DNA from: an uncultured candidate division Zixibacteria bacterium
GTDB lineage: Bacteria; Zixibacteria; MSB-5A5; RBG-16-43-9
Assembly: GCA_963713865.1 (NCBI GenBank)
Contig: OY970208.1
Location: 512,001 to 576,000 of the forward strand
Direction: 5' to 3'
DNA: 64,000 bases
Position numbers and translations under genes: made by a program
Notes under the pieces: model-generated
Told to the model about the DNA's origin: nothing
Seen by the model: the letters and a program-made list of their open reading frames with translations, nothing else
Databases searched by the model: none
Part shown: one piece after another, positions 32,823 to 50,539 of the stretch
Layout: each line of letters opens with the position of its first letter
Position numbering within the stretch: position 1 is the first letter of the stretch

Positions 32823-32839
32823 AGCAATTAATATGCCAA
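32823..32839 (-). promoter_or_regulatory. sigma54 (-24/-12) promoter of the PEP-CTERM gene
   Basis: TTGGCATATTAATTGCT, GG-N10-GC. Confidence 0.8.
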
Positions 32840-32929: not shown

Positions 32930-33203
32930 AGCTTTAAATATGTTCAATTTGCTGACAGACTCAATTCAACAAAATCGGGATTTTAGGCTTAACTCATTGA
33001 ACATTAGAAGATTAAAGATTCACTTTTTTGAGTTCAGACAAATGACATTTTTAATATTAATCTGACACAGGAAAAAATTACTTCTTTGATTGAAATATAT
33101 TCCATTTTTTGATCATTGTTTATTCACATTTCTAAAAACCTATAAAACCTTAATTCTTTAACATTCAAAGAGATACATCCAAAACTTGTATAGTTATTTA
33201 GTG

Positions 33204-33220
33204 TAGGCATACCTTTTGCT
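33204..33220 (+). promoter_or_regulatory. sigma54 promoter of glycan operon 1
   Basis: TAGGCATACCTTTTGCT, GG-N10-GC. Confidence 0.75.
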
Positions 33221-33227
33221 AAAAATT

Positions 33228-33402
33228 TGAACAGAATTTAGTTAAGATTTTCTTAATGTTGCCGAATTGACTCAAAAGGATAAGCTATGTCCCAGGAAGG
33301 GGCGATAAAAAGCAAAAGAGCTTGTCCACTAAAAATGGACTCAAGCAACTTTAGCAGGAGGCTAAAGACAAACTGCCGGAGAAGAAAAGGGGGGTTTTTC
33401 AA
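33228..33402 (+). ncRNA. Conserved structured 5' leader, copy 1 (unassigned family)
   Basis: Paralog at 50290-50465; hairpins GTCCC-AGGAA-GGGGC, GTCCA-N7-TGGAC, CTTTAGC-AGGAG-GCTAAAG. Confidence 0.6.
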
Positions 33403-33456
33403 GTCATTTAGAATCCAGGATATTACTTAAACTGTTTTTAATTAAAAAACAATTCT

Positions 33457-34203
33457 ATGATCGATTTACATACACATCTTCTTCCGGGAATAGATGATGG
33501 AGCAAAATCTATGGAGGAAGCAATCCAGATGATAAAAGAAGGAAGGGAAATAGGGATAACTGCAATCTGCACCACACCCCATCTTTCAACCAATTTTAAG
33601 AAAACTAAAACGGAAAAAGTTGTAGAGATTTTCTTAAAACTTCAGGAAAGAATGGCTCAAGAAAAAATTGATATCCAGCTCTATTTGGGAAGCGAGATAG
33701 ATTTGAGGGAGGATCTTAGCTCAATGAAAGACCTCCCTTGCTTTTTCCTGAACCATACTCAGAAATATTTATTCCTGGAACTCCCCTTAGGAGAATTCCC
33801 TTCCTTTACAGAGAGGATACTTTTCTCCTTACTGATAGAAGGTCTATCTCCAATTCTGGCACATCCGGAAAGAAGTTTAAATCAAGAAATTGACTTTGAA
33901 AGATTAGGGAAGCTAAAAGATTCAGGAATTCTAATCCAGCTTAACGCTGGTTCCCTTTTAGGAAGTTTCGGTAAAAAAGTTCAAAGGTCAGCTTTGAAGT
34001 TATTAGAAAAAGATCTGGTGGATCTGTTAGCCAGTGATGCACATGACTCAAATAACCGACCTATAACCATTCTATCAGAAGCTTTTAAAAGGATAAAAAA
34101 TGATTTTGGGGAGGAAAAAGCAAGAGAACTTTTTGAGGAGAATCCCCAAAAAATCCTTCAAGCGGAAGATATTGAAAGAAAAATGAGAATAAAATACTTC
34201 TAA
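33457..34203 (+). CDS. CpsB/YwqE-family PHP protein-tyrosine phosphatase
   Basis: MIDLHTHLLPGIDDG, TPH, LAHPER, ASDAH. Confidence 0.9.
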   Translation: MIDLHTHLLPGIDDGAKSMEEAIQMIKEGREIGITAICTTPHLSTNFKKTKTEKVVEIFLKLQERMAQEKIDIQLYLGSEIDLREDLSSMKDLPCFFLNHTQKYLFLELPLGEFPSFTERILFSLLIEGLSPILAHPERSLNQEIDFERLGKLKDSGILIQLNAGSLLGSFGKKVQRSALKLLEKDLVDLLASDAHDSNNRPITILSEAFKRIKNDFGEEKARELFEENPQKILQAEDIERKMRIKYF

Positions 34204-34216
34204 CCAAGGTGGAAAA

Positions 34217-34714
34217 ATGAAAAGAGTAAAAAAGTTAATCAGCCTGGGTTTAGTATTCTACCTATTCTTTTTTCAGGTATCAAGTTTAGTCTGGGCTCAG
34301 GTGGAAGAAAAAGAGGGAACTCTGAGGAATGCCGGCTCAAACTATTTTCTTGCTCCCGGAACTAATAACCAGCTTTTAATTAAAGTGAATGTCTGGGGTG
34401 AGGTATTTAAGCCAGGGATTGTGGAGGTGCCGGATAATACTGATCTGCTCTCTCTGCTTTCCATAGCAGGAGGACCGACTGAAAATGCCCGGCTCAGCAA
34501 AGTTAAAATCCTGAGACATTTTTCCCAGAACAAAACCATCACCGTGAATGTCAAAGATTTTGTTCGAGATGGCAAAGCTGAAGAGATACCTTTAATCAAA
34601 CCGGGGGACACAGTTATAGTTCCTCGAAACAGCTTCCATACGGTTACAAAATATATAACCTTTGTCTATAATTTAGCAGTGATAGCCAGCGTGATTAAAC
34701 TTTTTACTCAATAA
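34217..34714 (+). CDS. SLBB-domain polysaccharide export accessory protein (Wza-like fragment)
   Basis: VNVWGEVFKPG, LLSIAGG, IKPGDTVIVP. Confidence 0.75.
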   Translation: MKRVKKLISLGLVFYLFFFQVSSLVWAQVEEKEGTLRNAGSNYFLAPGTNNQLLIKVNVWGEVFKPGIVEVPDNTDLLSLLSIAGGPTENARLSKVKILRHFSQNKTITVNVKDFVRDGKAEEIPLIKPGDTVIVPRNSFHTVTKYITFVYNLAVIASVIKLFTQ

Positions 34715-34728
34715 TAAGGAGTAGTAAA

Positions 34729-36997
34729 TTGGAAGAGCAGAATAGAATAGCCCAGGTTCAAAAAGAGATCTCCTTTCAGGACTACCTGATAATCCTGAAG
34801 AGGAGAGGGTGGATCATAATCAGTTCTTTTTTAATAATCCTTCTCTCCGCTGGAATCTTTTCTTTTATCGCTCAGCCGATCTACGAGTCTTTTACTACCT
34901 TGATGATCGAGGAAGATGGAGGGATGAAGAAAGATATTTTTGAGATCTCCTCTTACTTAAAGCAGGAGACGATGATCAAAAACCAGGTGGAGATACTTAA
35001 AAGTCGAACTCTGACTGAATCGGTTCTACAGGTCCTTTTATCCTCCCCTTATAAAAGAGTCTGGGAAGAAAAAGCTCTGGGGAAAAGAGCCGATAGGGTC
35101 AAAACTAACGATATGGTCTTGATCCTGCAGAACAATATCAAGGTGGTACCTTTAAAGGAGACTGATATAATTCAGGTTAAAGCAACCGCTCCGGATCCTG
35201 ATCTGGCTGCATTTTTAGTCAACACCATTGCAGAAGAATACTATAAACAAAGCCTCCAGGTCAGCCGGGGAGAGATCACCGAGGTACGCCAGTTCTTAGA
35301 GGAACAGCTTTTGAGCATTCAAAAAGAGTTGCAGCAAGCTGAAGAGGCTCTAAGAACATATAAAGAGCAAGAAAAGGTTGCCGCCCTACCTGAAGAAACC
35401 GAAGAGCTGGTAAAACAGTTAGCCGGTTTTGAGTCCATGTATAATGAAGCAAAAACCGATCTGGAAGCCAATCAGAAAAGACTTACCTATATGCAAAACC
35501 AGCTTTCGGAGAGAAAAAGTCATTTAGTGGAAGATGTATCTCAGGTCTCCAGTCCTTTGATAACTCAATTACGGCAGGAGATGGCAAATTTAGAAGGGAT
35601 GAGAGCGGGATTTTTAGCCCAGGGTTTCCCGGAAGACCATCCCAAGATGGTAGAAACAGTCAATCGCATAGAGGATATAAAGCAGAAACTCATAAAGGAA
35701 ACCACCCAGTTAATTTCTAAAGAGCTTTCTTCTTCGGACCCTTTAGCCTATTCCCGGGAGTTAGTGGAGAAGATTTTAACCCTGGATATAGAGATTCAAT
35801 CTTTAACTGCTAAATCAGAGGCATTAAAGAGAATTGTGGATACCTACTCAGATAATCTCAACACCCTGCCGGAAAAAAGCCTTAAATTAGTTCGCCTGGA
35901 GAGAAATGCCAAGGTGGGAGAAAATATCTTCTTAATGTTAAAGGAAAAATATGAGGAATCACGCATAAGTGAGGCTGGACAGATCGGAAGTGTGAGGATC
36001 ATAGATAAAGCCTTACCTCCGGAGAGCCCCATAAAACCTAAAAAGAAAATAAACATTCTTTTAGGTGCGCTCCTGGGTCTGGGATTAGGATTGGGAATGG
36101 CATTTTTTGTGGAGAGGCTGGATAATTCCCTAAAGAGTATAGAGGATGTGGAAAGAGCTGGCCTTTCGATCTTAGGCTCGATACCTCTGATAAAAAGCAG
36201 TAAAGATAAAAAATCAAAGAAAAAAGAAGAGAAGTCTGAAGACTATCAAATAAAAAGAATTGCCTCAAATTTAGTAACTCATTTCGAGCCAAAGTCACCT
36301 ATCTCTGAGGCATATCGTACCTTCAGGACTAATCTGCAATTTGCCAGAACTTGATTCACCCTTGAGGACTATTCTGGTAACCAGTTCAGGGCCAGGCGAG
36401 GGTAAATCTACCACTGTAGCTAATTTGGCAATTACCATGGCTCAGATGGGAACCAAAACTCTTTTAATCGATTCAGACTTAAGGCGTCCGGTCTTACACT
36501 CTATCTTTAGTCTCCAGAGAAATCCGGGGTTGACCAACTATCTGGCAGGAAACGTTCCCTTAGTAGAAATTATCCAAGCAACTCCTATAGAAAACTTAAG
36601 TGTCTTAACCTGTGGAGTCCTGCCTCCTAACCCTTCTGAGCTTTTAGGCTCAAAGAAAATGAAGACCCTTTTAGAAGAGCTGAAAGGAAAATATGAGATG
36701 ATCCTGTTTGATTCTCCACCGGTAATAGCAGTAACTGATGCCGCAGTGTTATCGACCTTATTGGATGGAGTGGTTTTAATAGCATCATCCGGACATACTT
36801 CCAGAGAGGCATTAGTAAGAGCGACTACTTTGTTGCAGAATGTCAATAGCAGGTTAATAGGCGGAGTCCTAAATAAGATCAAAGTGGAAAACATTTACGG
36901 TTCATATCACTATTACTACTATTACCACTACTATGGAGGAACTAAACAGAAGAGGAAAAAAAGAACGGCAGAAGAGGTAAAGGTTAATGTCTCATAG
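34729..36997 (+). CDS. wzc: Wzc polysaccharide co-polymerase/BY-kinase; +1 frameshift near 36348, likely an error
   Basis: Wzz domain, PESPIKPKK, EAYRTFRTNL, then GPGEGKST, DSDLRRP, DSPP and a Tyr cluster YHYYYYYHYY. Confidence 0.88.
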
Positions 36998-38429
36998 CAA
37001 AGCCTTTGTCATTTTTAAAAACTCAGGTACCTTGGGGATTTCCACATTTGTAGGAAAGATTTTTTACTTATTATTATTCATTATAATCGGAAGGTATTTA
37101 GGACCTTCGGATTTAGGGAAGTTCAGTTTTGCTATGTCCTTCGCTGCCATATTCTTTTTGGTAAATGATTTAGGGATAAGAATCCTGGCAGTAAGAGATG
37201 TTTCCCAAGATAAAAACTTGACTGGAAAATATCTAGGGAATTTAGTATTACTAAAGCTCTTCTTGGCTGCCTTTGCCTTCTTAGGGGTATTTGCTATGAT
37301 TAACCTTATGGGATATCCCAAGGAAACGGTTATCATTGTTACCCTTATAGGCTTAGCTTCTCTCTTGATTCACTTTTCTACGAGCTTTAGATGGATTTTT
37401 CAGGCTTATCAGAGGCTGGAGTATGAGTCACTAATTGGTGTTATTGAGAACTTGGGTAACTTAATTCTAGGATGTTTGGCAATGATACTCAACTTACGAA
37501 TTGTTGGCATCGGCTATGGCATGATTATTGTGGGAGCTTTTATTGTTATTATCTCCTGGTTTGTAGTGAACAGAAAATTCCACAGAGTAAAAATCGAAAT
37601 AGATTTACCATTCTGGAAAGATTTGTTGAGTAAGTCCATCCCTTTTGCTTTGATGCTGGTCTTCGCCACTTTATATCTTAATGCAGACACAGTTCTGCTC
37701 TCCTTATTCAAAGGTGACCATGCAGTGGGGCTTTACAATGCGGCTAATCGGTTAGCCCTAGCTTTAAGAATGTTTCCTGCAGTATTTATCTCCGCTTTTT
37801 TCCCGATAGCCTCTGAGCTCTCTAAAGTCTCTAAAGTTGAGCTTAGTAGCTTTTTAGAAAAATCCTTAGCTTTGATGGTTTCCTTAGCTTTACCCTTGTG
37901 CGTTGGCACAACTTTTCTTGCAGAAAAAATTATTACTTTCTTTTATGGTCAAAAATTTAGTGGTTCGGCATTAGTTCTACAGATAACTATTTGGGGCACC
38001 TTCTGCATGTTTTTAAGTGTCGTTTTGGGATACACTTTGATATCTCTGGGAAAACAAAAAATATATACTCTGATAACTGGTTTGGGTTTAGGAGTTAACC
38101 TAGTGATTAATTTCAGCTTGATCCCTAGATTTGCTCAGTCTGGAAGTGCCATAGCCATTCTATGTACTGAGCTTTTTATCCTAGTGGCAGTATTTTACTC
38201 AATTGTAAAATTACTTGATTTCAAGATGAAAGGATTTCTGCCCTCGGTCATGAAAATAAGTGCCGCCTGTTTGGTTATGCTGGGAGTGATATACTTAACT
38301 AAAGATTTTCATCTCCTGTTGTCTGTTGGATTAGGAACAATAAGCTATTTCACCGCTCTTTTCGCATTCAAAGGGATATATGGATATAATCTATATAGAA
38401 TTAAAGAACTAATTTTAGTGCGACTTTAA
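36987..38429 (+). CDS. wzx: Wzx flippase
   Basis: RYLGPSDLG, DLGI, VGLYNAA; ~14 TM helices. Confidence 0.88.
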   Translation: MSHSKAFVIFKNSGTLGISTFVGKIFYLLLFIIIGRYLGPSDLGKFSFAMSFAAIFFLVNDLGIRILAVRDVSQDKNLTGKYLGNLVLLKLFLAAFAFLGVFAMINLMGYPKETVIIVTLIGLASLLIHFSTSFRWIFQAYQRLEYESLIGVIENLGNLILGCLAMILNLRIVGIGYGMIIVGAFIVIISWFVVNRKFHRVKIEIDLPFWKDLLSKSIPFALMLVFATLYLNADTVLLSLFKGDHAVGLYNAANRLALALRMFPAVFISAFFPIASELSKVSKVELSSFLEKSLALMVSLALPLCVGTTFLAEKIITFFYGQKFSGSALVLQITIWGTFCMFLSVVLGYTLISLGKQKIYTLITGLGLGVNLVINFSLIPRFAQSGSAIAILCTELFILVAVFYSIVKLLDFKMKGFLPSVMKISAACLVMLGVIYLTKDFHLLLSVGLGTISYFTALFAFKGIYGYNLYRIKELILVRL

Positions 38430-38443
38430 AAGGAATTTATAGG

Positions 38444-39817
38444 ATGATAACTGACTTTCTGTTAATAACAGTGATTTCTTTGTTTGTCTTTCTTTGGGTA
38501 GGTAAGAGCTTTAAAAGAGTAGTTCTCTTTCTGGCATTTTTTATGCCTTTTGAGGAGTTCATCCTGAAATTTATTCCAGTCTCAGATGAGCTATATTCTC
38601 TTTTGAGATATGGAAGTGAGGTTTTATTACTTATAACCCTTGTAGCTTTGATTATTAATAAAATAATCCAGAAAAAGCCATTTGTTAAAACTGTAGCGGA
38701 TATTCCGGTTTTGACATTTGCAGGAATTGCCTTCCTATCCGGAATCTTGAATCAAACCCCTCTATTAGAAATTGTGCTATTTTTAAGAATAGTACTACGA
38801 TACTATGCTTTGTATTTCCTTTTGGTAAATATTGAGCTGGATGAAAAATTTACCAAAAAACTTATATATGGACTCGTGACCATAGCTTCTCTTCAATTCT
38901 TTATAGGATTAGCCCAGGTTTTAATTGGTGGGGCTGTGAATGACCTACTCATGCCCAAACCTTCAACTCTTATAGTTGGGAGTTACTCTAAAGAGTGGGT
39001 ACTTCTTCAGGGTTTCAGGGAAAAGGGATATTTATTCTTTGGCACTTTTGGTGATACGGTAAATCTTGGTCTTTTTATCTTTGTAATTTTTGTGATGATG
39101 TTGGGGGTTTATTTTATCTGGGAAAAACCTATAAAGAGGATGTGGTTATTCTTCCTTTTATCCTTTTTTACCCTTCTTTACACCTATTCTGTCGGTTTAA
39201 TATTTTCCTTATTCGTAAGTTTATTATTTATCACTATAATAAAAAGAAAGTGGACTCTAATGGTAAGCACTTCCCTAATTGTTCTATTATTCTTTCTAAT
39301 ATTGACTTTCTATCCAGCCGAATTTGCAGAGGTAGCTACATCACATTATATGGTTTCACCCTTAAAAAATCTCTCCGCAACCTTTTCAACTACGTTCCTT
39401 GAAAGTATTCAAAAGAATAGAATTTTCACACTTATAGAAGTTCCAAAAGTGATCTTATTTCAATCACCTCTGTTTGGTTTTGGACCGGGCTGGCGCCTAA
39501 TTAAAGATAGAATCTCAAGTTATTGGTTAGGAGATGTATATTGGGCTCAAATGGTTGCCCAGGTGGGTCTAATGGGACTTTTTGCCTTTTTATGGATAAT
39601 TTTAAGATTTTATAAAACCAGTTTCAAGGTTTATAAAAATTCAAATGATTTGCTAAAGAAAGGAATTGCCCTTGGATTTTTAGGAGTAATAGCTGGATTC
39701 TTTTTTTATAACTTCATTTGTGGAACTTTCGAGACTCGACCCTCAGCTCTTTGTTTCTGGTTGTTTGCCGGGCTAATTGGAAACTGGTCAAAATCTATTC
39801 CGGGAAATGAAATATGA
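38444..39817 (+). CDS. Wzy polymerase / O-antigen ligase family protein
   Basis: Polytopic; GTFG..N, PLFGFGPG, AQVGLMG. Confidence 0.7.
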   Translation: MITDFLLITVISLFVFLWVGKSFKRVVLFLAFFMPFEEFILKFIPVSDELYSLLRYGSEVLLLITLVALIINKIIQKKPFVKTVADIPVLTFAGIAFLSGILNQTPLLEIVLFLRIVLRYYALYFLLVNIELDEKFTKKLIYGLVTIASLQFFIGLAQVLIGGAVNDLLMPKPSTLIVGSYSKEWVLLQGFREKGYLFFGTFGDTVNLGLFIFVIFVMMLGVYFIWEKPIKRMWLFFLLSFFTLLYTYSVGLIFSLFVSLLFITIIKRKWTLMVSTSLIVLLFFLILTFYPAEFAEVATSHYMVSPLKNLSATFSTTFLESIQKNRIFTLIEVPKVILFQSPLFGFGPGWRLIKDRISSYWLGDVYWAQMVAQVGLMGLFAFLWIILRFYKTSFKVYKNSNDLLKKGIALGFLGVIAGFFFYNFICGTFETRPSALCFWLFAGLIGNWSKSIPGNEI

Positions 39818-40890
39818 AAAAGATATTAATGGTAGTTGGTTGCAAAGTTCAGAGTTTAAAAGAGGATGACAAAAGTAAGCATCCGGCTGACATTTTGTTG
39901 CCAAACCAGAGATACTGGTTTTTCAAATACTGGTCCGGAGACAATTTGAAGATAGAGGTTATAGGTTATAAAAGAATCCCTTTTTTGAGCAAAATCGAGA
40001 AAAAGATTTTACATTTTCATCTTTTTCAATCCTTAAGGATTTTGCCAAAGATGAAAAAATATGACCTTGTGATTTTCTTTCATTCGCAGATAGGGATAAT
40101 CCCGGCTTTATTTAAGAGCATCTTTAAAATAAAGACTCCTCTGGTGTTGATAGATGTGGAGGGTTTAGGCAGAAAAAACAAGGGGTATATGTTGCCCTTT
40201 ATTAGAAAAGCCCTACGGGGAATAGACCAGCTTTTCTATTTAGCTTCAATTCAAAAAGAAGACTATCAGAGATATTTGCCTGAAATCATCAACAAAAGCG
40301 ATTTTCTCCCTCTGGGAATAGACCTGACCAGATTTTCATCTAACAGAGCAAAAGAAGATGATTATATCGTCTCCATAGGATATCAAGGTCCTGATTTCAG
40401 AGACTGGAAAACCTTGATAAAAGCTTATGGACAGTTGAAGACCAAGACAAAGCTCTTAATTGTAGGAAGAGAGAAGTTTAAACCAGAGGAAGTTGATTAT
40501 GAGAAAATCCCTTTAGGGGTAGAATTTGTTGGGAAAACAGACCTTTTGACTTTGAATGAAATCACTTCAAAAGCCAAATTCGTGGTATTGCCACTTCCTG
40601 AGAGGAGACATGCTTTTGGGCAGATGACACTTTTAGGATGTATGGCAATGGGGAAAGCGGTGATTGTAAGCCGGGTGCCAGGGATTATTGATTATGTCAA
40701 AGCTAATGAAAATGTTTTGTTAGTGGAACCAAGCAACATTTTAGATTTGAAGAGCAAAATGGAATACTTGTTAGCTGAACCTGAAAAGAAGAAGGTCCTT
40801 GAGACAAAAGCCAGAGAAACGATTGAAAAAGAGTTTAACGAGATTAAAATGGCGAAAGGGATTTATGAAGCAGTTTCTAAAATTATTTGA
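39814..40890 (+). CDS. GT4 glycosyltransferase
   Basis: RDWKTLI, VVLPL, GQMTLLGCMAMGKAVIVS. Confidence 0.85.
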   Translation: MKKILMVVGCKVQSLKEDDKSKHPADILLPNQRYWFFKYWSGDNLKIEVIGYKRIPFLSKIEKKILHFHLFQSLRILPKMKKYDLVIFFHSQIGIIPALFKSIFKIKTPLVLIDVEGLGRKNKGYMLPFIRKALRGIDQLFYLASIQKEDYQRYLPEIINKSDFLPLGIDLTRFSSNRAKEDDYIVSIGYQGPDFRDWKTLIKAYGQLKTKTKLLIVGREKFKPEEVDYEKIPLGVEFVGKTDLLTLNEITSKAKFVVLPLPERRHAFGQMTLLGCMAMGKAVIVSRVPGIIDYVKANENVLLVEPSNILDLKSKMEYLLAEPEKKKVLETKARETIEKEFNEIKMAKGIYEAVSKII

Positions 40891-40902
40891 AGATATTAGA
40901 GA

Positions 40903-41673: not shown

Positions 41674-41688
41674 AAGGAATTAGAAGGA

Positions 41689-42911
41689 ATGCAAACAGGT
41701 ACAAGTTGTGAAAAAGGGTGTTTTAAAAATGTTTTGCTGCTCGGGTTCGGATTTTATCTCCATAGAAATAGTGGGGATAAGAATTTCTGGCTGGGACTTT
41801 CCAGGGAGTTGTCTTTTATGCTGGATAAAATAGTTATAGTTTCAGCTAATTCCTCGCCAACTAAATTTGAGCAGGAAGGGAATATTTACCAGTATAATTT
41901 TCAGTCCTCATTTCACCGAAAGAAAGCTGGTGGAAAGGATGAAAGATTTCAATTCTTGAAGAATTCTCCTCCTTGGAGGGCTGTACAAAGATCTGCTACT
42001 TTGCTAAAGTTAATTCCTTTCTTGAAAAAGTTAGTTAAACATCACAATATCCAGGTAATTCATCTGATGGACAATTTTGGATTTTTGACCGGATTGGTTA
42101 AACTGTTTTTTCCTAAACTGAAAGTCTATGCCACTGCTATCACATATAATATCCATAGTTTCCCTGCTAAGCCTTATTCTTTTTATCAAAAGATAGTTTT
42201 TGGAAATCTGGATAAGGTGGTGGTCAGTTCAAACGCTTATAAGCAGAAATTAATCGAGCATAACTTTTCAAGAGAAAAGCTTAAAGTCATCCGGTGGGGA
42301 ATTCCTGTTTCAAATGGAGAAGAGAGGATGCCAGAGAATGGAAAAGCTTATCGTTCTAAAAAAGTGATCTTATGGACAGGCTTTACCCAACAGGTAAAGG
42401 AAAAAAGTTTTTATCTCTCCTTATCCCTGGCAAAAAATATACTAAAGAAAAACCCATTTGTTGATTTCATTTTCGCCTTTAAGCCGGAATGTTTTGACAA
42501 AAAGTATGAATATTTCAGGGGTGAGCATATCCAGGTTTTAACTACAAAACCTGAAGATTTCAAAAATCTTTTACCGAAGGTTGACCTTCTACTTGCCCCG
42601 ATTGATAACTATAGCTCAACTGTAGCTCCTCCTCTGACCTGGATAGAGTGCATGAGCTTGGGAATACCAGTTATAAGCACACCGGTACCGGAGTAGATGA
42701 GATTCTTATCCACAACCAGACCGGTTTTGTGGCTAAATCTAAACAGGAGTTAGAGGAGCTAATAGAAAGGGTCTTAGAAGAAAGAGATTTGCTGACAAAA
42801 GTATCAACCAGAGCAAAAGAATGGGTCAGAGAAAATTATAATTTGAAAGATATCGCTGGGGATTACCTGAAATTATGGAGGGAAGATGGTAGAGCTATCT
42901 TATCCAGCTAA
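41689..42911 (+). CDS. GT4 glycosyltransferase; 1-nt deletion near 42690, likely an error
   Basis: IECMSLGIPVISTPVP continues as GVDEILIHNQTGF in the next frame. Confidence 0.78.
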
Positions 42912-43533
42912 AACTGCCTATCAGTCTGAAGAATCGGCTGAAACCTACGACAGGATTAGATTTGATAGTTTTAAAGGGAAACTGGCAGATAGAAGGGAGA
43001 AAAAGATAATAGGAAAGTTTCTCAAAGACCTTCCTAAAGGTAGCCTGGTTTTGGATTTGGCTTGTGGAACCGGAAGAATCGCTGAGTTTTTATTATCTCA
43101 AGGTCATAGAGTCTGGGGAGTAGATATCTCAAAAGAAATGCTGAAAGTTGCAGAAGAAAAACTTAGCTCCTTTGGAAAATCAGTTAATTTCTACCAGGCA
43201 GAAGCAGAGAATCTGCCTTTTGAAAAAAAGTTATTTGATAGTGCTACCTGTATCAAGCTTTTGGGACACATCCCACCTGAAACCAGGATTAAAATCCTTC
43301 AGGAGTTAAAAAGGGTTACTAAAGGTTCTCTTGTTGTGGCTTATTACCTCTCTGGACCGATTGCGAATGCCAAAAGGAAAATCAGGAAATTCATTACAGG
43401 TAATAAAGCTCCCTGGTATCCAATTAGCAGAAAGTGTTTAAAAGAAGAGATAACTTTAGCTAATCTGAGAATTCTTAAAGAAAAACCGGTATTAGCATTT
43501 GTTTCTGAAACCTTGATTCTTTTGTTAGATTGA
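42886..43533 (+). CDS. Class I SAM-dependent methyltransferase
   Basis: VLDLACGTGR, GVDISKEML, AENLPF. Confidence 0.88.
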   Translation: MVELSYPAKTAYQSEESAETYDRIRFDSFKGKLADRREKKIIGKFLKDLPKGSLVLDLACGTGRIAEFLLSQGHRVWGVDISKEMLKVAEEKLSSFGKSVNFYQAEAENLPFEKKLFDSATCIKLLGHIPPETRIKILQELKRVTKGSLVVAYYLSGPIANAKRKIRKFITGNKAPWYPISRKCLKEEITLANLRILKEKPVLAFVSETLILLLD

Positions 43534-43579
43534 AGTTAAGAGGTTATACAGTAGAGTAGTGTCAAGAAAGAAGTAAATT

Positions 43580-44839
43580 ATGGTTCATTATTTCGATAAC
43601 AAAAAAGAAATCGTGTTATGCCTTTTGATGATTTTCTTTCTTGCTTTTGCTTTAAGATTTATTTGGGTTTCAAAGCTGGGGTCTAAATTTTATTGGTCAG
43701 ATGAATATGAATATAACAAAATTGCCACTAACCTATTGGAAGGGAAAGGATATTCCTTGGATGGGGTCAAACCAACCGCCTATAGACCACCTGGACAATC
43801 AATTTTTCTGGCGCTTTTATATTTTACCTTCGGTCATAACCTTTTCTTAGTAAGGATCTTCCAAAGCATAATGGGGTCTTTAGCCTGCTTCTTAGTATAT
43901 TTAATCTGTTCCAAACTTAGTTTTAGCTCATCCGCTTCACTCCTATCTAGTTTATTAGCTGCTCTTTATCCATATTATATCTATGCGGCCGGGAGTTTAT
44001 ATCCTATAATTCTTTTGACCCTCCTACTCCTTTTGGCCTCACTTTTCTTAATTGATGCTTATGGTCGATATAAAAATCTCAGCTTAATAAGTGCAGGTAT
44101 TTGTTTAGGCTTAGGAACGTTAACAACTCCCCACTTATTTATATTATTTCTCTATGTTCCATTTTGGTTGATATTGAACCCAAGAATATCCACATTGAAG
44201 AAAAAGTTGGCTTATTTCTCAATAATTTCGATAACCTTTATTTTAACAGTATCACCCTGGCTTGGACGGAATTACTATGTCTTTCACAAAATCACTTTTT
44301 CAACTAATGGCGGTTATAATTTTTGGTTAGGCAACAACCAAGAAGCTACTCCAACCAGTGGAAATAAAGTCTCAGTACCAGCAGAACTAAATAAAAAATT
44401 AGGTTTAGCTATCAGTGAAGTAGAAAAAGAAGAAATTTTCGTAAAAGAAGCTTTAGGTTTTATTAAAGAGCATCCGATAAGATTTGCTTATCTCAGTCTG
44501 GGCAAGGCTTTAAATTTCTTTAGCTTTTATCCGGAGACCGCTACTCAAAATGAACATACTTCTTATAAATTCAAGATTATTTCAATTCTATCCTACAGTC
44601 CAATTCTGATTTTTGGAATATTGGGAATGTTTGTCCTTCGGAGACGTTGGAAAGAACTATCGATTTTCTTATGGTATCTTATCTCTTTTGTGTTGCTTTG
44701 CAGTTTTTCTATTTCTAAGATCAGATTTCGTTTACCCTTAGATGTTTATTTAATAATTTTTAGTAGCTACTTTATTGTTCTCTTGATGGAAAAGACTTTT
44801 GTTAGATTTCATATAGCAACGATAAAAAGCGAGTATTGA
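43580..44839 (+). CDS. ArnT/PMT-like GT-C membrane glycosyltransferase
   Basis: WSDEYEY, PTAYRPPG, PWLGRNY, GYNFWLGNN, RFRLP. Confidence 0.8.
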   Translation: MVHYFDNKKEIVLCLLMIFFLAFALRFIWVSKLGSKFYWSDEYEYNKIATNLLEGKGYSLDGVKPTAYRPPGQSIFLALLYFTFGHNLFLVRIFQSIMGSLACFLVYLICSKLSFSSSASLLSSLLAALYPYYIYAAGSLYPIILLTLLLLLASLFLIDAYGRYKNLSLISAGICLGLGTLTTPHLFILFLYVPFWLILNPRISTLKKKLAYFSIISITFILTVSPWLGRNYYVFHKITFSTNGGYNFWLGNNQEATPTSGNKVSVPAELNKKLGLAISEVEKEEIFVKEALGFIKEHPIRFAYLSLGKALNFFSFYPETATQNEHTSYKFKIISILSYSPILIFGILGMFVLRRRWKELSIFLWYLISFVLLCSFSISKIRFRLPLDVYLIIFSSYFIVLLMEKTFVRFHIATIKSEY

Positions 44840-44889
44840 AATATGTTTCTGAGACATCGATTCTTTTATTGAATTGAGGTAAACTATTT

Positions 44890-44934
44890 ATGAAGATTTT
44901 ATTTGTAAACAGATACTATCGAGGCTATAAATGA
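44890..44934 (+). CDS. 14-aa mini-ORF MKILFVNRYYRGYK coupled to the downstream MTase
   Basis: GAGGT RBS; stop overlaps the ATG (ATGA); second copy at 46686. Confidence 0.45.
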   Translation: MKILFVNRYYRGYK

Positions 44935-46670
44935 ATACGGTAATAACTGAGCAAAAGCCAAAAACTGAGTTAGAATATACCAATTGTGATTTCTGCGGTG
45001 AGGACAAAACCAGCCTCTTTCTGGAAGCAATGTCTGAGGATACCCCGGAGAAATTTAAGATTGTAAGATGCAATAATTGTGGATTACTCTATCTAAATCC
45101 TAGGCCGGTCAAGGAGATTATTGGAAGATATTACCCTGTAGATAGCTATTATGCTTATCAAGATTTCTCAAACAAAAAATTCAATTATCGGGAATGGTTA
45201 AAGAAAATCTCCTTAGATGGGTATTACAATTCAAAAAATAGTTTTAAAAAACTTCTCTCTCTGCTTTTAGTCAGAAATTTTATGATTGTGGTTCCGAACG
45301 AAAAAAGGGGAAGACTCTTAGACATAGGTTGTGGGAGTGGGGAATTTTTGTACCAGATGAGAAATTTTGGCTGGGATGTCTCTGGAGTAGAGATAAATCA
45401 AGCATCTGCTAATTTGGGAAACAAACAGGGGCTTAATATCTTCTGCGGAGAATTAGGGGGTGCTGATTTCTCAGATAACTTTTTCGATGTAGTGGTCTTA
45501 AACCAGACCTTGGAACATGTTTACTCCCCCGGTTCATATCTGAAAGAAATACATAGAATTCTCAAACCAGAAGGGACTTTAATAATCGCCGTGCCTAATA
45601 TCGGGTGTATGGAGAGCAAAATGTTTAAAGAAAACTGGCACCTTTTAGATGTTCCGACACACCTTTATTTTTTTAATACCACTTCTCTAAGGCGGTATTT
45701 GGAAAAGTATGGATTTGCAGTTGAGGAAGTTCTTTCCAAAAGATTTAGTCTCCCTCTTAACGAAATAAGAGCTGATTTAAAAGCAGTTATTCAAAATGAA
45801 TGTAGAGATAAAAGTTTTTTAAATAAAACACTGATGAGCATTCGAGTAATTTCTCGATTGATCATTGCAAAAAGTTTAAGATTTCTCTTCATTCGAGATA
45901 AGGTTGAGGAATTAGGTGTATATATCTCTTTCTATGTCCGAAAACCGAGAATAAGAAATGTAATTCCTTGCACGAGGGAACTCTCAACTCAAAAAGACAG
46001 GGGGCTAAATAGCATGAATAACTTTATGCTGAAGACTAATAAAAGAAGAATACTCAGGTACAGCAAACGGTATAAGATAGTTCAAAAGTATTGTTTCGGC
46101 AAAACAGTTTTAGACCTGGGTTGTGTTGATCACTCCGCTGAGGCGGAAGAGAACTTCAATGACTGGCTTCATAAAGGAATAAAGGATGTGGCTAAAGAAG
46201 TGGTAGGGCTGGACAATGCCGAGAAAGAAGTAAAGCTTCTAAATCAACGAGGATATGACATCTTAGCGGGAGACGTGGAGAACTTCAATTTAGGTAGACG
46301 TTTTGAGGTAGTTGTTTGTGGAGAATTGATTGAACATGTCAACAACCCGGGGCTAGTTCTACAAAATATCAAGAAGCACCTACTAAAAGAAGGTACTCTT
46401 ATTGTTACAACCCCGAATTCTGAATCGATGTTGTGGGTTCTGTATAACCTGGTTTATGGAAGAGTGCCCTGTAATCCAACCCATGTTTTTTGGTATAATT
46501 ACCAAACCCTTACAGAACTTTGTAGAAGATACGATTTCGAGGTTGTAACCACCTATTACGAAGTAGGTAATCCTAATAACAGGGTGCTGTACAACATTGA
46601 GCGATGTATGCGTTCCATCAGGAAGAATTGGGCTCACGAACTGATTGTGATATTTAAGAACAAACATTGA
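44931..46670 (+). CDS. Zn-ribbon methyltransferase fused to a second methyltransferase domain
   Basis: CDFC..CNNCGLLYLNPRP, LLDIGCGSG, LEH; second domain VLDLGC, GELIEH. Confidence 0.8.
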   Translation: MNTVITEQKPKTELEYTNCDFCGEDKTSLFLEAMSEDTPEKFKIVRCNNCGLLYLNPRPVKEIIGRYYPVDSYYAYQDFSNKKFNYREWLKKISLDGYYNSKNSFKKLLSLLLVRNFMIVVPNEKRGRLLDIGCGSGEFLYQMRNFGWDVSGVEINQASANLGNKQGLNIFCGELGGADFSDNFFDVVVLNQTLEHVYSPGSYLKEIHRILKPEGTLIIAVPNIGCMESKMFKENWHLLDVPTHLYFFNTTSLRRYLEKYGFAVEEVLSKRFSLPLNEIRADLKAVIQNECRDKSFLNKTLMSIRVISRLIIAKSLRFLFIRDKVEELGVYISFYVRKPRIRNVIPCTRELSTQKDRGLNSMNNFMLKTNKRRILRYSKRYKIVQKYCFGKTVLDLGCVDHSAEAEENFNDWLHKGIKDVAKEVVGLDNAEKEVKLLNQRGYDILAGDVENFNLGRRFEVVVCGELIEHVNNPGLVLQNIKKHLLKEGTLIVTTPNSESMLWVLYNLVYGRVPCNPTHVFWYNYQTLTELCRRYDFEVVTTYYEVGNPNNRVLYNIERCMRSIRKNWAHELIVIFKNKH

Positions 46671-46685
46671 GAATACACACAGAGT

Positions 46686-46730
46686 ATGAAGATTTTATTT
46701 ATAAACAAATACTATCGAGGTAATAAATGA
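46686..46730 (+). CDS. 14-aa mini-ORF MKILFINKYYRGNK coupled to the downstream MTase
   Basis: Paralog of 44890-44934 with the same ATGA overlap. Confidence 0.4.
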   Translation: MKILFINKYYRGNK

Positions 46731-47773
46731 ACACAGCAATAACTGAACAAAAACCAAAAACTGAGTTAGAATATACTAATTGTGATTTCTGTGGAGAGAA
46801 TAGAACTAATATCTTTCTGGAAGCAGAGTCTGAAGTCAATAAAGAGAAATTTACAATAGTCAGATGTGATAACTGTGGATTAATCTATCTTAATCCTAGG
46901 CCAACTAAGGATATCATTGGAAGATATTATCCTGAAGATAGCTATTATTCTTATCAGGATTTCACAGAAAAAAGATTGAATTACCGGGAATGGCTGAAGA
47001 AGATCTCTTTGGAGGGATATTATAATTCAAAAAATATATTTAAAAAACTCATCGCCAAACTTTTAGTTAGAAATTTCCTGGTCGTGATACCCAAAGAAAG
47101 AAAAGGGAGGCTTTTAGACATAGGTTGTGGGAGTGGGGAATTTTTGTACCAGATGAGAAATTTTGGTTGGGATGTCTCAGGAGTGGAGATAAATCGAGCA
47201 TCTTCTAATTTGGGAAACAAACAGGGGCTTAATATTTTCTGTGGCGAATTGGGGGAAGCTGATTTTCCAGATAACTTTTTTAATGTAGTTGTCCTAAGCC
47301 AAACCTTGGAACATGTTTATTCTCCGGGTAATTATCTGAGAGAAATATATAGAATTCTGAAACCTGAAGGAACTTTAATTATTGGAGTGCCAAACATTGG
47401 GTGTATGGAGAGCAAAATATTTAAAGAAAGCTGGCATGCCTTAGAGGTTCCCAAGCACCTTTACTTTTTTACATGTGACACTTTAAGACGTTATCTGGAG
47501 AAATACGGATTTGAAGTGGAGAAAATTCTTTCTAAAAAATTTAGCTTGCCCCTTAAAGGAATAAAGGCTGATCTAAAAGCATTTATTCAAAATAAAGGTA
47601 AAAATAAAAGTTCTTTGAACAAGATCTGGATGAGATTTCTGGTTGTTTTTCATTTAATATTTTTAAAAAGCTTAAGATGTCTCTTCATTCGAGATAAGCT
47701 TGAGGAATTAGGTGTACATATCTCTTTTTATGCTAATAAACCAGTGAACAAAAAGAAAGAAAAAGTCCATTAG
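46727..47773 (+). CDS. Zn-ribbon methyltransferase, paralog of the 44931 N-terminal domain
   Basis: Near-identical stretches (EQKPKTELEYTNCDFCGE, GRLLDIGCGSGEFLYQMRNFGWDVSGVEIN). Confidence 0.85.
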   Translation: MNTAITEQKPKTELEYTNCDFCGENRTNIFLEAESEVNKEKFTIVRCDNCGLIYLNPRPTKDIIGRYYPEDSYYSYQDFTEKRLNYREWLKKISLEGYYNSKNIFKKLIAKLLVRNFLVVIPKERKGRLLDIGCGSGEFLYQMRNFGWDVSGVEINRASSNLGNKQGLNIFCGELGEADFPDNFFNVVVLSQTLEHVYSPGNYLREIYRILKPEGTLIIGVPNIGCMESKIFKESWHALEVPKHLYFFTCDTLRRYLEKYGFEVEKILSKKFSLPLKGIKADLKAFIQNKGKNKSSLNKIWMRFLVVFHLIFLKSLRCLFIRDKLEELGVHISFYANKPVNKKKEKVH

Positions 47774-47780
47774 GGAATTT

Positions 47781-49028
47781 ATGAAAGTCTTGATGTGCAA
47801 TAAATTCTTGTTTGAAGATGGTGGACCAGAGAGATATATCCTGGAGCTCTCCCGGATGTTGGAAAAACATGGGAACCAGGTTGCCTATTTTGCTATGCAA
47901 CACTCTGAGAACATAAAGACTGAGTACTCAAAATATTTTGTCTGCCAAGTCTCCTTAGGGAATCCTAAAGAGGGAAGTTTACTGGAAAAGATGAAGGCCG
48001 GATTAAGGATAATCTATTCTACCGAAGCTAAGAGAAAGATGGAAAAATTAATCTCAGAGCAGAAGCCGGATCTGGCTCATCTGCATAATATCTATCATCA
48101 GATCTCTCCTTCCATTTTACCAGTTTTACATCAGAAGGGGATTCCGGTGGTTATGAGCTTGCATGATTATAAACTTATCTGCCCGAATTATAGACTTATG
48201 ACCCAGGGGAACATCTGTGAAAAATGCAACTCCACTAAATACTATCAGGCAGTTTTCCATAAATGCGTAAAAGATTCTTTCTCTGCCAGTTTGCTAAATT
48301 GTTTGGAGATGTATGTTCACAAGTTTTTAAAGTTCTACGAGAAAAATGTGGACCTCTTTATTTCACCCAGTCTTTTTATGAAGGAAAAGCTTTCTGAATT
48401 TGGATTTGATAAATCCAAAATCGTTTATCTCCCCCCCTGGGTTAAAGAGATCAAATCTACTCCATCTTATACCTATTCTGATTTCATCCTCTATTTCGGA
48501 AAGATAAACAAAGAAAAAGGAGTGGAGATTTTGATTAAGGCAATGGAAAGAATAAAAGAGGAACAATTGTTTATCGTGGGTGAAGGAGAGGAAAAAAACA
48601 GATTGCAAAATTATATTAGTCAAAATGGAATTGATAATGTAAAGTTTATGGGATTTGCAGAAAAAGCAAAATTAAATGAGCTAATCCAAGAATCAAGATT
48701 TGTGGTCTTACCTTCGCAATGGTATGAGAACTCTCCTTCTGTTATCTATGAGTCTTTTTCTCTTGGGAAACCGGTAATTGGTTCACGTATCGGAGGAATC
48801 CCTGAACTAATTGAAGATGGAATAACAGGACTTTTGTTCGAGCCTTCGAATGTGGAAGATTTAGCGGAGAAGATACACTATCTTTATCACCATCCGCTCT
48901 TAGCTCAGAAGATGGGGATTTCTGCCCGGAAAAAGGTTGAAGAAAAATATTCAGAGGAGGGATATTATAAAAAACTTTTAAGGATATATAACGATCTTAT
49001 TGAAAACGGGGGGGAAAGTTATGTTTAA
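47781..49028 (+). CDS. GT4 glycosyltransferase
   Basis: HLHNIYHQISPS, LHDYKLICP, PSQWYEN, GKPVIGSRIGGIPE. Confidence 0.9.
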   Translation: MKVLMCNKFLFEDGGPERYILELSRMLEKHGNQVAYFAMQHSENIKTEYSKYFVCQVSLGNPKEGSLLEKMKAGLRIIYSTEAKRKMEKLISEQKPDLAHLHNIYHQISPSILPVLHQKGIPVVMSLHDYKLICPNYRLMTQGNICEKCNSTKYYQAVFHKCVKDSFSASLLNCLEMYVHKFLKFYEKNVDLFISPSLFMKEKLSEFGFDKSKIVYLPPWVKEIKSTPSYTYSDFILYFGKINKEKGVEILIKAMERIKEEQLFIVGEGEEKNRLQNYISQNGIDNVKFMGFAEKAKLNELIQESRFVVLPSQWYENSPSVIYESFSLGKPVIGSRIGGIPELIEDGITGLLFEPSNVEDLAEKIHYLYHHPLLAQKMGISARKKVEEKYSEEGYYKKLLRIYNDLIENGGESYV

Positions 49029-50100
49029 AAACACAGAACTCGCTATAATGCCTACTTTTCGCTGTAATGCCCATTGTCAGATGTGTCATATCTGGCAGCA
49101 TCCGAGCAAAAGAGAAGAGGAGCTAACCCTGGAGGATATAGATAAACTTCCTGAAGGTTTTGCGCGCATCAATCTCGGAGGAGGAGAACCAACTCTTCGC
49201 AAGGACATTATTGAAATAGTAGATATTCTCTCAAAAAAAACAAAACATCTTGAGATCAGCACCAATGGTTATTTTACAGAGAAATTAGTCTCCATCGCTA
49301 AAAAACATCCGGATATAAGGATAAGGATTAGCCTGGAAGGTCTGCCCAGGAAAAATGACCAGATCCGTGGAATCAGAAACGGATTTGACCGGGCAATGAG
49401 AAGCATGCTTAAACTAAAAGAACTGGGGATAAAAGATATCGGTTTTGCCATAACCATATCCCATCGGAATGCGGATGAACTGGTAAATTTATACCATCTC
49501 TGTACCTATCTGGGAATTGAGTTCAGCCAGTGCGTGGTTCATAATGCCTGGCAATTCCGCATACCGGATAATCTGATTGACGATAAGGGAAAGGTCATAG
49601 GCGAGATTAAAAACTTCATCCGGGAATTACTTCGATCAAAACGAAGAAATTATTTTTTAAAAGTTAAAGACTGGTATCGGGCTTATATGAACAGAGGATT
49701 TATAAATTTCATATTGGGGGATAAAAGGCTCCTTCCCTGTGGGGCAGGAACAGACATAGTATTCATTGACCCCTATGGTGAAGTTTATCCCTGTAATGCT
49801 CTTAAGGAATCGATGGGTAACATAAAGGAGAAAAGTTTTGAACAGATCTGGAACGGCTCTCAGGTAAAAATGGTTCGAGAAATAGTTTCCAGATGCCCGG
49901 AGAACTGCTGGATGACCGGAACTGCCAAACCTGCACTCAGAAGAAATATACTGAAGCCAAGTTTGTGGATTTTAAAAAACAAGATAAGGCTTTTTTTGGG
50001 GAAAGATCTTATTGGGGACCTTGAGGGAGGAGAAGACCTTAAAAAACTTAAGAGAATTGAAGAAAAGGAAGAAAGTTATTGCCAGCTGATAAACTCTTAA
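49021..50100 (+). CDS. Radical SAM protein with SPASM/twitch domain
   Basis: CNAHCQMC, GGGEP, CGAG..IDPYGEVYPC, CPENC. Confidence 0.9.
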   Translation: MFKNTELAIMPTFRCNAHCQMCHIWQHPSKREEELTLEDIDKLPEGFARINLGGGEPTLRKDIIEIVDILSKKTKHLEISTNGYFTEKLVSIAKKHPDIRIRISLEGLPRKNDQIRGIRNGFDRAMRSMLKLKELGIKDIGFAITISHRNADELVNLYHLCTYLGIEFSQCVVHNAWQFRIPDNLIDDKGKVIGEIKNFIRELLRSKRRNYFLKVKDWYRAYMNRGFINFILGDKRLLPCGAGTDIVFIDPYGEVYPCNALKESMGNIKEKSFEQIWNGSQVKMVREIVSRCPENCWMTGTAKPALRRNILKPSLWILKNKIRLFLGKDLIGDLEGGEDLKKLKRIEEKEESYCQLINS

Positions 50101-50265
50101 GTTAAATGTTATTTTCTAAATAAATCCCCTAACGGAAAAAATTACTTTTTTTAAGAAATATATTCCTGTTGTACTCAAAATCTGAACTTTATTTCAAAAA
50201 ATATCTCCAAAGCTTATTCTTTGATATTCAATGAGTTACATATTAAACTCAACGGGAAACTCCTA

Positions 50266-50282
50266 TAGGCACGCCTTTTGCT
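50266..50282 (+). promoter_or_regulatory. sigma54 promoter of glycan operon 2
   Basis: TAGGCACGCCTTTTGCT, GG-N10-GC; IHF-like ATTCAATGAGTTA at 50226-50238. Confidence 0.8.
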
Positions 50283-50289
50283 AAAATAT

Positions 50290-50465
50290 TGAACAGAATT
50301 TGTTAAGATTTTCAGGATGATGTCGATTAAAGCAAAAGGATAAGCTATGTCCAGGGAAGGGGCGAAAAAAAGTAAAAAGGCTCGTCCAGAAAGAATGGAC
50401 TCAGTCGAGCTTAGCTGGAAGCTAAAGCTAAACTGCCGGAGAAAAAAATGGGGGGTTACTTTCAA
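50290..50465 (+). ncRNA. Conserved structured 5' leader, copy 2 (unassigned family)
   Basis: Paralog of 33228-33402; stems conserved, loops varied. Confidence 0.6.
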
Positions 50466-50539
50466 CTGTTTCCAAATAATCTTTCTCTGTAATTTATCAG
50501 TAACAGTGAGTATTATTAAACTTTTTACTTCATAAAAAT

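Follow-up and report, generated by a model that had tools for sequence, protein, structure and literature searches.

The window analysed here is the whole stretch of 64,000 nucleotides (nt) taken from the genome of an uncultured Zixibacteria bacterium (contig OY970208.1, positions 512,001 to 576,000). It carries two operons for extracellular polysaccharide, and a control element repeated at the head of both is the subject of this work. Zixibacteria are uncultured bacteria of sediment and soil; to our knowledge, nothing is known about gene regulation in this group. Operon A (33457-50100, 17 kb) codes for a CpsB-type phosphatase, an SLBB export protein, a Wzz/GNVR chain-length protein, a tyrosine-kinase-type ATPase, a flippase and a Wzy-like polymerase, and further encodes glycosyl- and methyltransferases and a radical-SAM protein. 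Operon B (at least 6 kb) encodes an epimerase, a nucleotidyltransferase, a GHMP kinase and a SIS protein. Each of the two copies of the element (copy A and copy B) forms a composite control module in which an enhancer site and a sigma-54 promoter precede a folded leader RNA of ~230 bases that includes an upstream open reading frame (uORF) (Table 1). The module probably decides at the post-transcriptional level whether the exopolysaccharide operon is expressed.

The repeated module and its promoter

An earlier inspection of the letters alone (the sequence-only reading) had aligned 33204-33402 with 50266-50465 over ~190 nt and interpreted both as a sigma-54-driven, GGA-rich structured leader in otherwise unrelated surroundings. 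A blastn search with the first segment against the complete 2.72 Mb genome (one contig) matched the second with 82% identity over all 199 nt (E = 1.1e-47); a third copy was absent from this genome, the remaining 21 matches all having E ≥ 0.47. A repeat finder reported 81% identity between copies A and B over 132 nt and 89% for a 36-nt promoter block. The flanks proved to be unrelated only in part. Likeness of the two copies reaches ~140 nt farther upstream, giving 75% identity over 333 nt, and covers an inverted repeat; 3' of copy B, 63 nt (50476-50538) match the end of operon A's SLBB export gene (34655-34717) with 78% identity, including the stop codon of that gene and its junction to the following one. 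The repeat, the sigma-54 promoter and the stems of the sequence-only reading were thus all found, while three parts of the module had been omitted from it: the enhancer site, the uORF across the whole structured region and the missing Shine-Dalgarno (SD) sequence of the first genes.

Table 1. Features of the two modules and of the adjoining genes (window positions; H1 to H4, hairpins of the leader)
Feature	Position	Strand	Remarks
Enhancer site, copy A	33070-33103	+	inverted repeat GGAAAAAATTAC-N10-GAAATATATTCC; fixed distance in 28/28 homologues
Enhancer site, copy B	50134-50166	+	same halves as in A (spacer N10/11 across copies); fixed distance in 28/28
Sigma-54 promoter, copy A	33206-33220	+	-24 GG 33206-7, -12 GC 33218-9; GGCAT-ACCT-TTTGCT
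Sigma-54 promoter, copy B	50268-50282	+	GG 50268-9, GC 50280-1; GGCAC-GCCT-TTTGCT
Leader RNA, operon A	33231-33456	+	~226 nt; covariance model matches, alignments A3 and A4
uORF A SD, AAGGA	33276-33280	+	GGA site 1; 6 nt before AUG
uORF A	33287-33430	+	47 codons + stop; ends 26 nt before cpsB start
H1, copy A	33289-33303	+	GUCCC-AGGAA-GGGGC; 95.6% of cells paired; 5' arm begins at G of AUG
H2, copy A	33320-33346	+	outer GCUU(G)/(C)AAGC, 86.8% paired; inner (G)UCCA/UGGA(C), 93.3% paired; loop CUAAAAA
H3, copy A	33351-33365	+	UUAGC-AGGAG-GCUAA; three inner pairs kept in 26-27/28
Near-invariant single-stranded block, copy A	33372-33383	+	ACUGCCGGAGAA; GGA kept in 26/28
H4, copy A	33384-33400	+	A tract/G6 loop/U tract (GAAAAG-GGGG-UUUUUC in register); covarying pairs
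First gene, operon A	33457-34203	+	CpsB/CapC-type PHP tyrosine phosphatase; PF19567, E 1.3e-54, from residue 1; no SD
Leader RNA, operon B	50293-50539	+	~247 nt; covariance model matches
H1, H2, H3, copy B	50349-50363, 50380-50410, 50411-50425	+	
Invariant block, copy B	50432-50443	+	
H4, copy B	~50442-50463	+	
uORF B	50347-50535	+	62 codons + stop; SD AAGGA 50336-50340; ends 4 nt before epimerase start
First gene, operon B	50540-51499	+	NAD-dependent sugar epimerase/dehydratase; PF01370, E 9.4e-45; no SD
Sigma-54 promoter of PEP-CTERM gene	32823-32838	-	TGGCAT-N5-TTGCT, sequence read; gene 32783-32016, PEP-CTERM domain; divergent from copy A

Homologues of the module were collected from genomes and metagenomes; the sequencing runs listed for it were DNA metagenomes, with no RNA run among them. 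Blastn detected the module in 8/8 other genomes of the same family and in none of 52 from other families within the order and class. From 12 copies a covariance model (R1) was built, which recovered the same 8/8 family genomes and an extra second copy in one of them, 13 copies in total, and gave no genuine match in 25 other genomes of the order, where hits in two genomes (G006 and G010) fell inside coding regions. With a second model (R2), among 151 genomes sampled across the phylum, the window's own genome and 3/3 other sampled family members were matched; the 147 genomes from elsewhere in the phylum gave no genuine match, the sole hit being the SD and start of an HU-like gene. These hits outside the family (L039, L034 and G115/L184) were discarded as false positives located within, or at the start of, ordinary genes. 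A scan of genome contigs for the promoter pattern yielded 43 stretches, 10 of which matched the model strongly (submitter labels: Zixibacteria/Zixiibacteriota for five loci, uncultured Ignavibacteria for four, Terriglobales for one); the same pattern in metagenome contigs yielded 98 stretches, and the 80 of them that were scanned held 17 full copies and two cut by contig ends. The total set consists of 30 copies with 28 unique sequences, and counts out of 28 below refer to the latter. Some of the metagenome-assembled genomes concerned (at L048, L050, L069, L079 and L074) belong to the same family as the window and bear conflicting submitter labels (Ignavibacteria, Terriglobales, Zixiibacteriota).

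Type A copies always precede a phosphatase gene and type B copies always precede an epimerase gene. The two types co-occur in at least three genera, and also on a single metagenome contig. Being kept together across genera before the same two gene types, both copies are old and maintained, which disposes of a recent neutral duplication, one of the outcomes that had been named as fatal to the sequence-only reading. Identity of copies between genera is 54-87%. The tree of the A and B copies is poorly resolved: the B copies need three changes, and a single origin is compatible with it.

The promoter has GG-N10-GC in the TGGCAC-N5-TTGCW register at a constant distance from the leader in 28/28 homologues. 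Judged by spacing only, transcription would start at ~33230-33232 in copy A, within TTGAACA, and at ~50292-50294 in copy B. The inverted repeat, a predicted activator site, lies 112-115 nt upstream of the -24 GG in 28/28 sequences, and its two halves co-occur at only two loci in the genome, namely those of copies A and B. The proteins required are encoded: rpoN was identified by a Sigma54_DBD match of 188 bits, along with 18 full-length enhancer-binding proteins (Sigma54_activat), none of them inside the window. The assignment to sigma-54 therefore stands. A PrsR equivalog (580.7 bits versus a cut-off of 502.6) adjoins an exosortase gene. The enhancer site of copy A sits between two divergent sigma-54 promoters, and the promoter of the PEP-CTERM gene on the other side may share this site; the latter promoter is a perfect match to the sigma-54 type, the leader of its gene is ~30 nt long, and the SD, AAGGAGAG, is strong. 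From the scan, two further sigma-54 promoters of Zixibacteria have the TTGAACA start region in common with the module but are followed by short leaders and ordinary SDs, so the long leader is specific to the polysaccharide operons.

Hairpins, upstream reading frame and GGA sites of the leader

The four-hairpin model was evaluated with the 28 unique sequences aligned by MAFFT (alignment A3; helix columns 61-65/71-75 for H1, 92-95/119-122 for outer and 96-100/108-112 for inner H2, 123-127/134-138 for H3 and 156-162/173-179 for H4). Standard pairs filled 87.5% of 712 cells, as compared with 34-53% when the partners were slid by 1-3 columns. Changes on both sides were seen in 11 of 26 pairs versus one to six in the slid controls, and the covariation score was 0.205 versus at most 0.066; none of 500 shuffles reached the observed values. 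An alignment fitted to the covariance model reproduced this picture of pairing and covariation. Hairpin H1, GUCCC/GGGGC in most sequences, appears as AUCCC/GGGAU and as a compensatory UCU/AGA in the two leaders of one genome (G005_B and G005_A, respectively). One pair of the outer H2 stem is C-G, U.G or U-A among the B copies, and copy G003_B has GCCUGU/ACAGGC. Two H4 pairs vary in a similar way: 157-178 is AU in 19 sequences, GC in six, UA in two and GU in one, and 161-174 is AU in 13 and GC in 11. The outer two pairs of H3 hold in less than half of the sequences. The length from promoter to G run is 189 nt, constant in most copies.

The stems of the sequence-only reading recur here, with stems kept and loops varied: GTCCA-CTAAAAA-TGGAC (A) against GTCCA-GAAAGAA-TGGAC (B), TTAGC-AGGAG-GCTAA against TTAGC-TGGAA-GCTAA, and the extension GCTTG/CAAGC against GCTCG/CGAGC. 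The invariant blocks and the G6 run noted at the same time are there as well, and the covariation among homologues supports the claim of a structured RNA. The suspicion that it belongs to no known Rfam family also proved right: scans at the gathering score and at permissive E-values gave no relevant match. At the gathering score, the window contains only a c-di-AMP riboswitch and a tRNA, both outside the leaders; below threshold, the best matches to the two leaders have E-values of 0.55-8 and concern unrelated families. A scan found no terminator-like site on the plus strand inside either leader. The hairpins are serial only, with no multi-helix junction, supported long-range pairing or SD-sequestering platform found among them.

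Several candidate pairings were rejected. A long-range CCG/CGG pairing proposed by RNAalifold (alignment A2, columns 33-35/149-151) showed no covariation and was broken by variants in G005_A and m091_A; in the latter, both ends of a GGAG/CUCC extension of H4, seen in one genus, were broken too. A pairing of the leader ends in copy A (AGAAU/AUUCU) was, by eye, not preserved in copy B or in other genera. An all-against-all scan of columns for covarying pairs was too noisy.

The folded region is at the same time an open reading frame. The arrangement AAGGA-N6/7-AUG occurs in 27/28 sequences, SD and AUG being constant while the length of the spacer varies. The frame that starts at this AUG is open for 35-62 codons in 27/27 sequences and spans all four hairpins; the other two frames meet a stop within 1-27 codons, with a single exception of 52. 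The uORF stop is located 4-27 nt upstream of the first gene in 24/27 cases. Because the purine-rich core of the leader is poor in stops, the frame test counted off-frame stops only in the AU-rich stretch that follows the G run. For nine sequence clusters (minimum per cluster), the probability (2/3)^k that the AUG frame escapes all stops was ~9e-5, or ~7e-4 with two related B tails counted once. Downstream, the first gene has no SD-like 4-mer at positions -20 to -4 in 27/28 homologues; the start of this gene is secure in both operons, the Pfam matches of the two proteins beginning at residue 1-4.

Conservation applies to the RNA and to the frame staying open; over most of the uORF, the amino acid sequence is free to change. 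The block ACUGCCGGAGAA is read by the uORF as NCRRRK, LPEKK or TAGEEK depending on lineage, that is, in three frames, and a second conserved block, after H4, is likewise read in two frames. A +1 indel in the H3 loop is balanced in the A tract by a -1 indel. Variability is the same at the second and third codon positions (entropy 0.40 and 0.42). The end of uORF B has a recognizable source: its last 18 codons resemble the C-terminal end of operon A's SLBB protein (11/18 identical, E = 3e-5), a homology which suggests that copy B arose by duplication of the head of operon A with an internal deletion.

Five GGA positions are kept in 26-28 of the 28 sequences: in the SD of the uORF, the H1 loop, the 3' arm of H2, the H3 loop and the CCGGAG block (ACUGCCGGAGAA), with spacings of 18, 42, 21 and 21 nt. 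The loop of H1 has GGA in 27/28 sequences and, with its closing pair, forms a CsrB-type repeat CAGGA(A/C/U)G in 21/28 (CAGGAAG in copy A); the GGA of the H3 loop is kept in 27/28 although the adjacent loop bases vary. A GGA overlapping an SD is found at the AAGGA of the uORF (27/28) and not at the first gene. The counts given in the sequence-only reading, five GGA in copy A and six in copy B, were right. Its term 'GGA-rich' is accurate to the extent that the density is somewhat above the mean, and it overstates a value unexceptional among windows of the genome (4-5 per 130 nt versus a mean of 2.3-2.5).

The search for csrA suggested along with that reading succeeded: the gene is present (86.7 bits), and its neighbours are fliW and flgN. 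According to published rules (PMC7652899, in the parts available), CsrA sites contain GGA in a short hairpin's loop, as in ANGGAN and in the CsrB repeat CAGGA(U/A/C)G, with several sites per RNA; a CsrA dimer may bridge two sites, one of them on an SD, and the leaders of pgaA and psl, both polysaccharide genes, are CsrA/RsmA targets. Five conserved GGA sites, their placement in hairpin loops and the overlap with an SD fit these rules, and binding of CsrA to the leader is plausible. One family member, G005 (L019, L038; 90% complete), is the only one in which csrA was not detected, and it has the two most degenerate leaders: in one, 21 nt are deleted and the uORF stops early; in the other, one GGA site, the H2 5' arm and the AUG are gone. 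We regard this single case as a hint and no more.

Proposed function of the leader and its alternatives

We tentatively favour, at somewhat less than even confidence, a translated structured leader that couples translation of the uORF to that of the first gene and is probably gated by CsrA at the GGA sites. An enhancer-binding protein bound to the palindrome ~115 nt upstream would fire the sigma-54 promoter; the activator should be one of the 18 encoded, with the PrsR-type regulator beside the exosortase locus as a candidate. The resulting leader of 226-247 nt would be both folded, as H1-H4 in series, and translated from the SD and AUG of the uORF. Ribosomes would load at this start, which is partly buried by H1, pass H1-H4 and finish shortly upstream of the SD-less start, so that the first gene would be translated by termination-reinitiation. 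Because the uORF stops a few nt before a gene devoid of SD, ribosomes that come by way of the uORF are most likely needed for the first gene to be expressed. The same ribosomes may also unfold the leader and possibly shield it from Rho, which the genome encodes. The decision point would be the uORF start, flanked by two GGA sites 18 nt apart (SD and the CAGGAAG of the H1 loop). The likeliest gatekeeper is CsrA, encoded with FliW: by bridging the SD and the H1 loop it would block initiation at the uORF and shut the operon off, its avidity raised by the other three conserved GGA sites. More broadly, the module may represent an undescribed class of leader, in which a long uORF, unconstrained as to its peptide, runs through four hairpins to feed an SD-less gene, and in which the RNA, read by CsrA or by another ligand or protein, acts as a post-transcriptional switch atop the sigma-54 switch; we consider this possible and, on the whole, doubtful.

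A number of observations weigh against the coupled, CsrA-gated leader. As to coupling, the uORF stop never overlaps the downstream start codon and in two copies lies 41 and 64 nt before the gene, and G005_B has no AUG at the uORF start, an internal AUG giving a shorter frame. Openness of the frame comes in part at no cost, the purine-rich core being stop-poor in any frame, and in copy B it may be inherited, as the tail of uORF B is derived from the 3' end of a real gene. Over the first 19 codons, the ratio of nonsynonymous to synonymous variation (pN/pS) is 0.56 versus 0.78 and 1.09 in the other frames, a value compatible with a functional N-terminal peptide but too weak to call. As to structure, folds of single sequences are no stabler than those of shuffles (z = -1.38 and -0.96), and RNAalifold gave merely -5.8 kcal/mol for the first 12 sequences. 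The hairpin model was derived from and tested on the same 28 sequences, which are closely related, so that the covariation rests on perhaps 10-12 independent changes. As to CsrA, the GGA density of the leader is only ~1.5 standard deviations (sd 1.7) above the genome mean; ~5% of windows have at least six, and the leader falls within the top 5-10% with no claim to being an outlier. One sequence has lost the GGA of the H1 loop (AAGAA). The csrA gene occurs in 30/34 genomes of the order, the leader in one family, and the presence of csrA thus does not track that of the leader; moreover, csrA stands here in a flagellar FliW/FlgN context.

The closest competitor dispenses with translation: the leader would be an untranslated CsrA-binding RNA, either a repressor or stabilizer in cis or a sponge, and the open frame a by-product of purine-rich composition. 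The csrA gene, the five conserved GGA sites with two in hairpin loops, the CsrB repeat in H1, the precedent of the pgaA and psl leaders (in the available parts of PMC7652899) and the scarcity of stops in the core all agree with it. However, the last GGA is 55-85 nt upstream of the first start codon, which makes direct occlusion of the first-gene start impossible; the frame stays open in the AU-rich, stop-prone stretch past the G run as well (9e-5); the SD and AUG are kept in 27/28 sequences over a variable spacer; GGA density is unexceptional; and no terminator delimits a separate small RNA. We judge it unlikely. Distinctly less probable is a riboswitch-like attenuator or one operated by another RNA-binding protein, in which the conserved loops and blocks would be recognized by a ligand or protein and H4, through its U tract, would serve as a weak terminator or pause. 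In its favour, loops and linkers are better conserved than stems (AGGAA, GAAAGAAUGGAC, ACUGCCGGAGAA, G6), the distance from promoter to G run is constant in most copies, and the lack of an Rfam match would simply make it new. The fold provides little for such a device: hairpins in series with neither a junction nor a supported long-range pairing, the columns 33-35/149-151 failing to covary, an H4 stem of A-U pairs that has 0-2 G-C pairs and does not resemble a terminator, and a first gene with no SD to sequester. The new riboswitch suggested by the sequence-only reading found no support in these features.

Slightly further down we place the possibility that the uORF encodes a functional small protein (N-terminus MSQEGAxKxxRACPERMDS, basic middle part) and is the true first gene of both operons, which we hold to be improbable. 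Its good SD and AUG, its open frame, the lower pN/pS at the N-terminus and the hydrophobic copy B tail with homology to the C-terminus of a real protein speak for it; the reading of ACUGCCGGAGAA and of the block after H4 in several frames, the equal variability of codon positions 2 and 3, the unrelated C-terminal halves of types A and B, the lack of any Pfam or NCBIfam match to the peptide and the AUG lost in one copy speak against it. Leaders of the EAR, ops/JUMPStart-RfaH and LoaP systems are positioned at, or close to, the start of long polysaccharide operons, and a processive antitermination element of this kind, which the sequence-only reading had also proposed, would suit the position before two such operons (~17 kb and at least 6 kb) and the blocks conserved on the non-template strand. 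It is very improbable, since the genome-wide search found a single match to the NusG N-terminal domain, hence no specialized paralogue; besides, there was no match to EAR or any other Rfam family, and the region contains 14 terminator-like sites versus 14.9 in shuffles. That the repeat is a neutral duplicate with no function beyond its promoter is hardly credible. The two copies could in principle stem from one duplication, and copy B does hold a remnant of the SLBB 3' end; yet both paralogues stand before the same two gene types in several genera at 54-87% identity, with conserved blocks and compensated stems, whereas the flanks have diverged past alignment.

Related systems and genome context

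The nearest known parallel to a coupled, CsrA-gated leader is iraD of E. coli, where repression by CsrA works via a uORF coupled in translation to the gene (Park et al. 2017, PMC5574718). As far as the accessible part of that paper describes it, the likeness comprises CsrA sites (here candidate sites) far upstream of the regulated start, one of them overlapping the uORF SD, and dependence of the gene on uORF translation (here proposed). In the same account, iraD has a short uORF whose stop overlaps the iraD start and a structure that sequesters the iraD SD; here, in contrast, the uORF has 35-62 codons, its stop is mostly 4-27 nt upstream, the gene has no SD, the promoter is of the sigma-54 type and the lineage is far from Proteobacteria. 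The leaders of pgaA (E. coli) and psl (P. aeruginosa), in what could be consulted of PMC7652899, resemble the Zixibacteria leader in being long 5' regions, ahead of a biofilm polysaccharide operon, that carry several GGA sites, some in hairpin loops; control of this type can act on translation, Rho termination and stability. Two sites cover the SD and start of pgaA itself, while here the sites flank the uORF start. There is no sequence or Rfam relationship between these leaders and ours, and a role of Rho is here only possible.

The RNAs CsrB, RsmY and RsmZ resemble the leader in serial GGA-loop hairpins with A-rich linkers and in the CsrB repeat, which H1 matches. The leader differs from them in having only two GGA loops, in being part of an mRNA, in being probably translated and in lacking an Rfam match; as it contains no terminator, no separate small RNA is predicted. 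EAR, ops and LoaP leaders are alike in position at the head of polysaccharide operons and unlike in that the genome has neither a NusG paralogue nor an EAR match. The PEP-CTERM box is an activator site plus sigma-54 promoter before PEP-CTERM genes, associated with PrsR/PrsK/PrsT (Haft et al. 2006, PMC1569441). In the box as in the module, a -24/-12 promoter comes after an enhancer motif in an exosortase and exopolysaccharide setting, and the present genome has a PrsR equivalog, an exosortase and a PEP-CTERM gene with a sigma-54 promoter. The accessible part of PMC1569441 describes the box only in Proteobacteria and before single PEP-CTERM genes; the module has a different enhancer sequence, occurs at two loci only, heads biosynthesis operons and is followed by a structured leader.

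By these analogies, the module would combine known kinds of control, sigma-54 enhancer control and an iraD-like CsrA/uORF leader, in a new, lineage-restricted form. The element was not found described in the literature searched, supplements not covered, and none of the papers listed there named Zixibacteria. An all-or-none sigma-54 switch with a second checkpoint at the mRNA would guard a costly extracellular polysaccharide decision in one lineage. If uORF coupling and CsrA binding are true, the reach of the iraD-type mechanism would grow from a single gene in E. coli to entire biosynthetic operons of a distant phylum, the same nucleotides would be under selection for both RNA structure and an open frame but not for the peptide, and the FliW-type CsrA of a non-proteobacterial lineage would gain a non-flagellar target. 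The scope is narrow, one uncultured family with two loci per genome, and the mechanism beyond sequence conservation is what we infer.

In the window's own genome, csrA belongs to a row flgN, 103-aa open reading frame (ORF), csrA, fliW (C1:1965097-1968255). The domains Flagellin_N and Flagellin_C were not found in the whole 94%-complete genome: either flagellin is divergent or missing, or CsrA-FliW has a different partner in this genome.

Several smaller repeats lie in or near the operons. The 38 nt before the cpsB start (33422-33459, ATTACTTAAACTGTTTTT...CTATG) recur with 74% identity at 42093-42130, inside the glycosyltransferase ORF 41689-42696, and both stretches end in ATG. A related motif, TTAAACT(N)TTTTTA, stands before the starts at 34729 and 50540. 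The neighbouring methyltransferase genes 44931-46670 and 46727-47773 form a pair of tandem paralogues with 79-82% DNA identity; the repeat consists of 44889-45188/46685-46984 and 45685-45936/47481-47732 and includes ~40 nt upstream of both starts. Elsewhere in the window, the c-di-AMP riboswitch (ydaO/yuaA type) is located at 4335-4471 on the minus strand (76 bits versus a gathering score of 38) and the tRNA gene at 25415-25486 on the plus strand.

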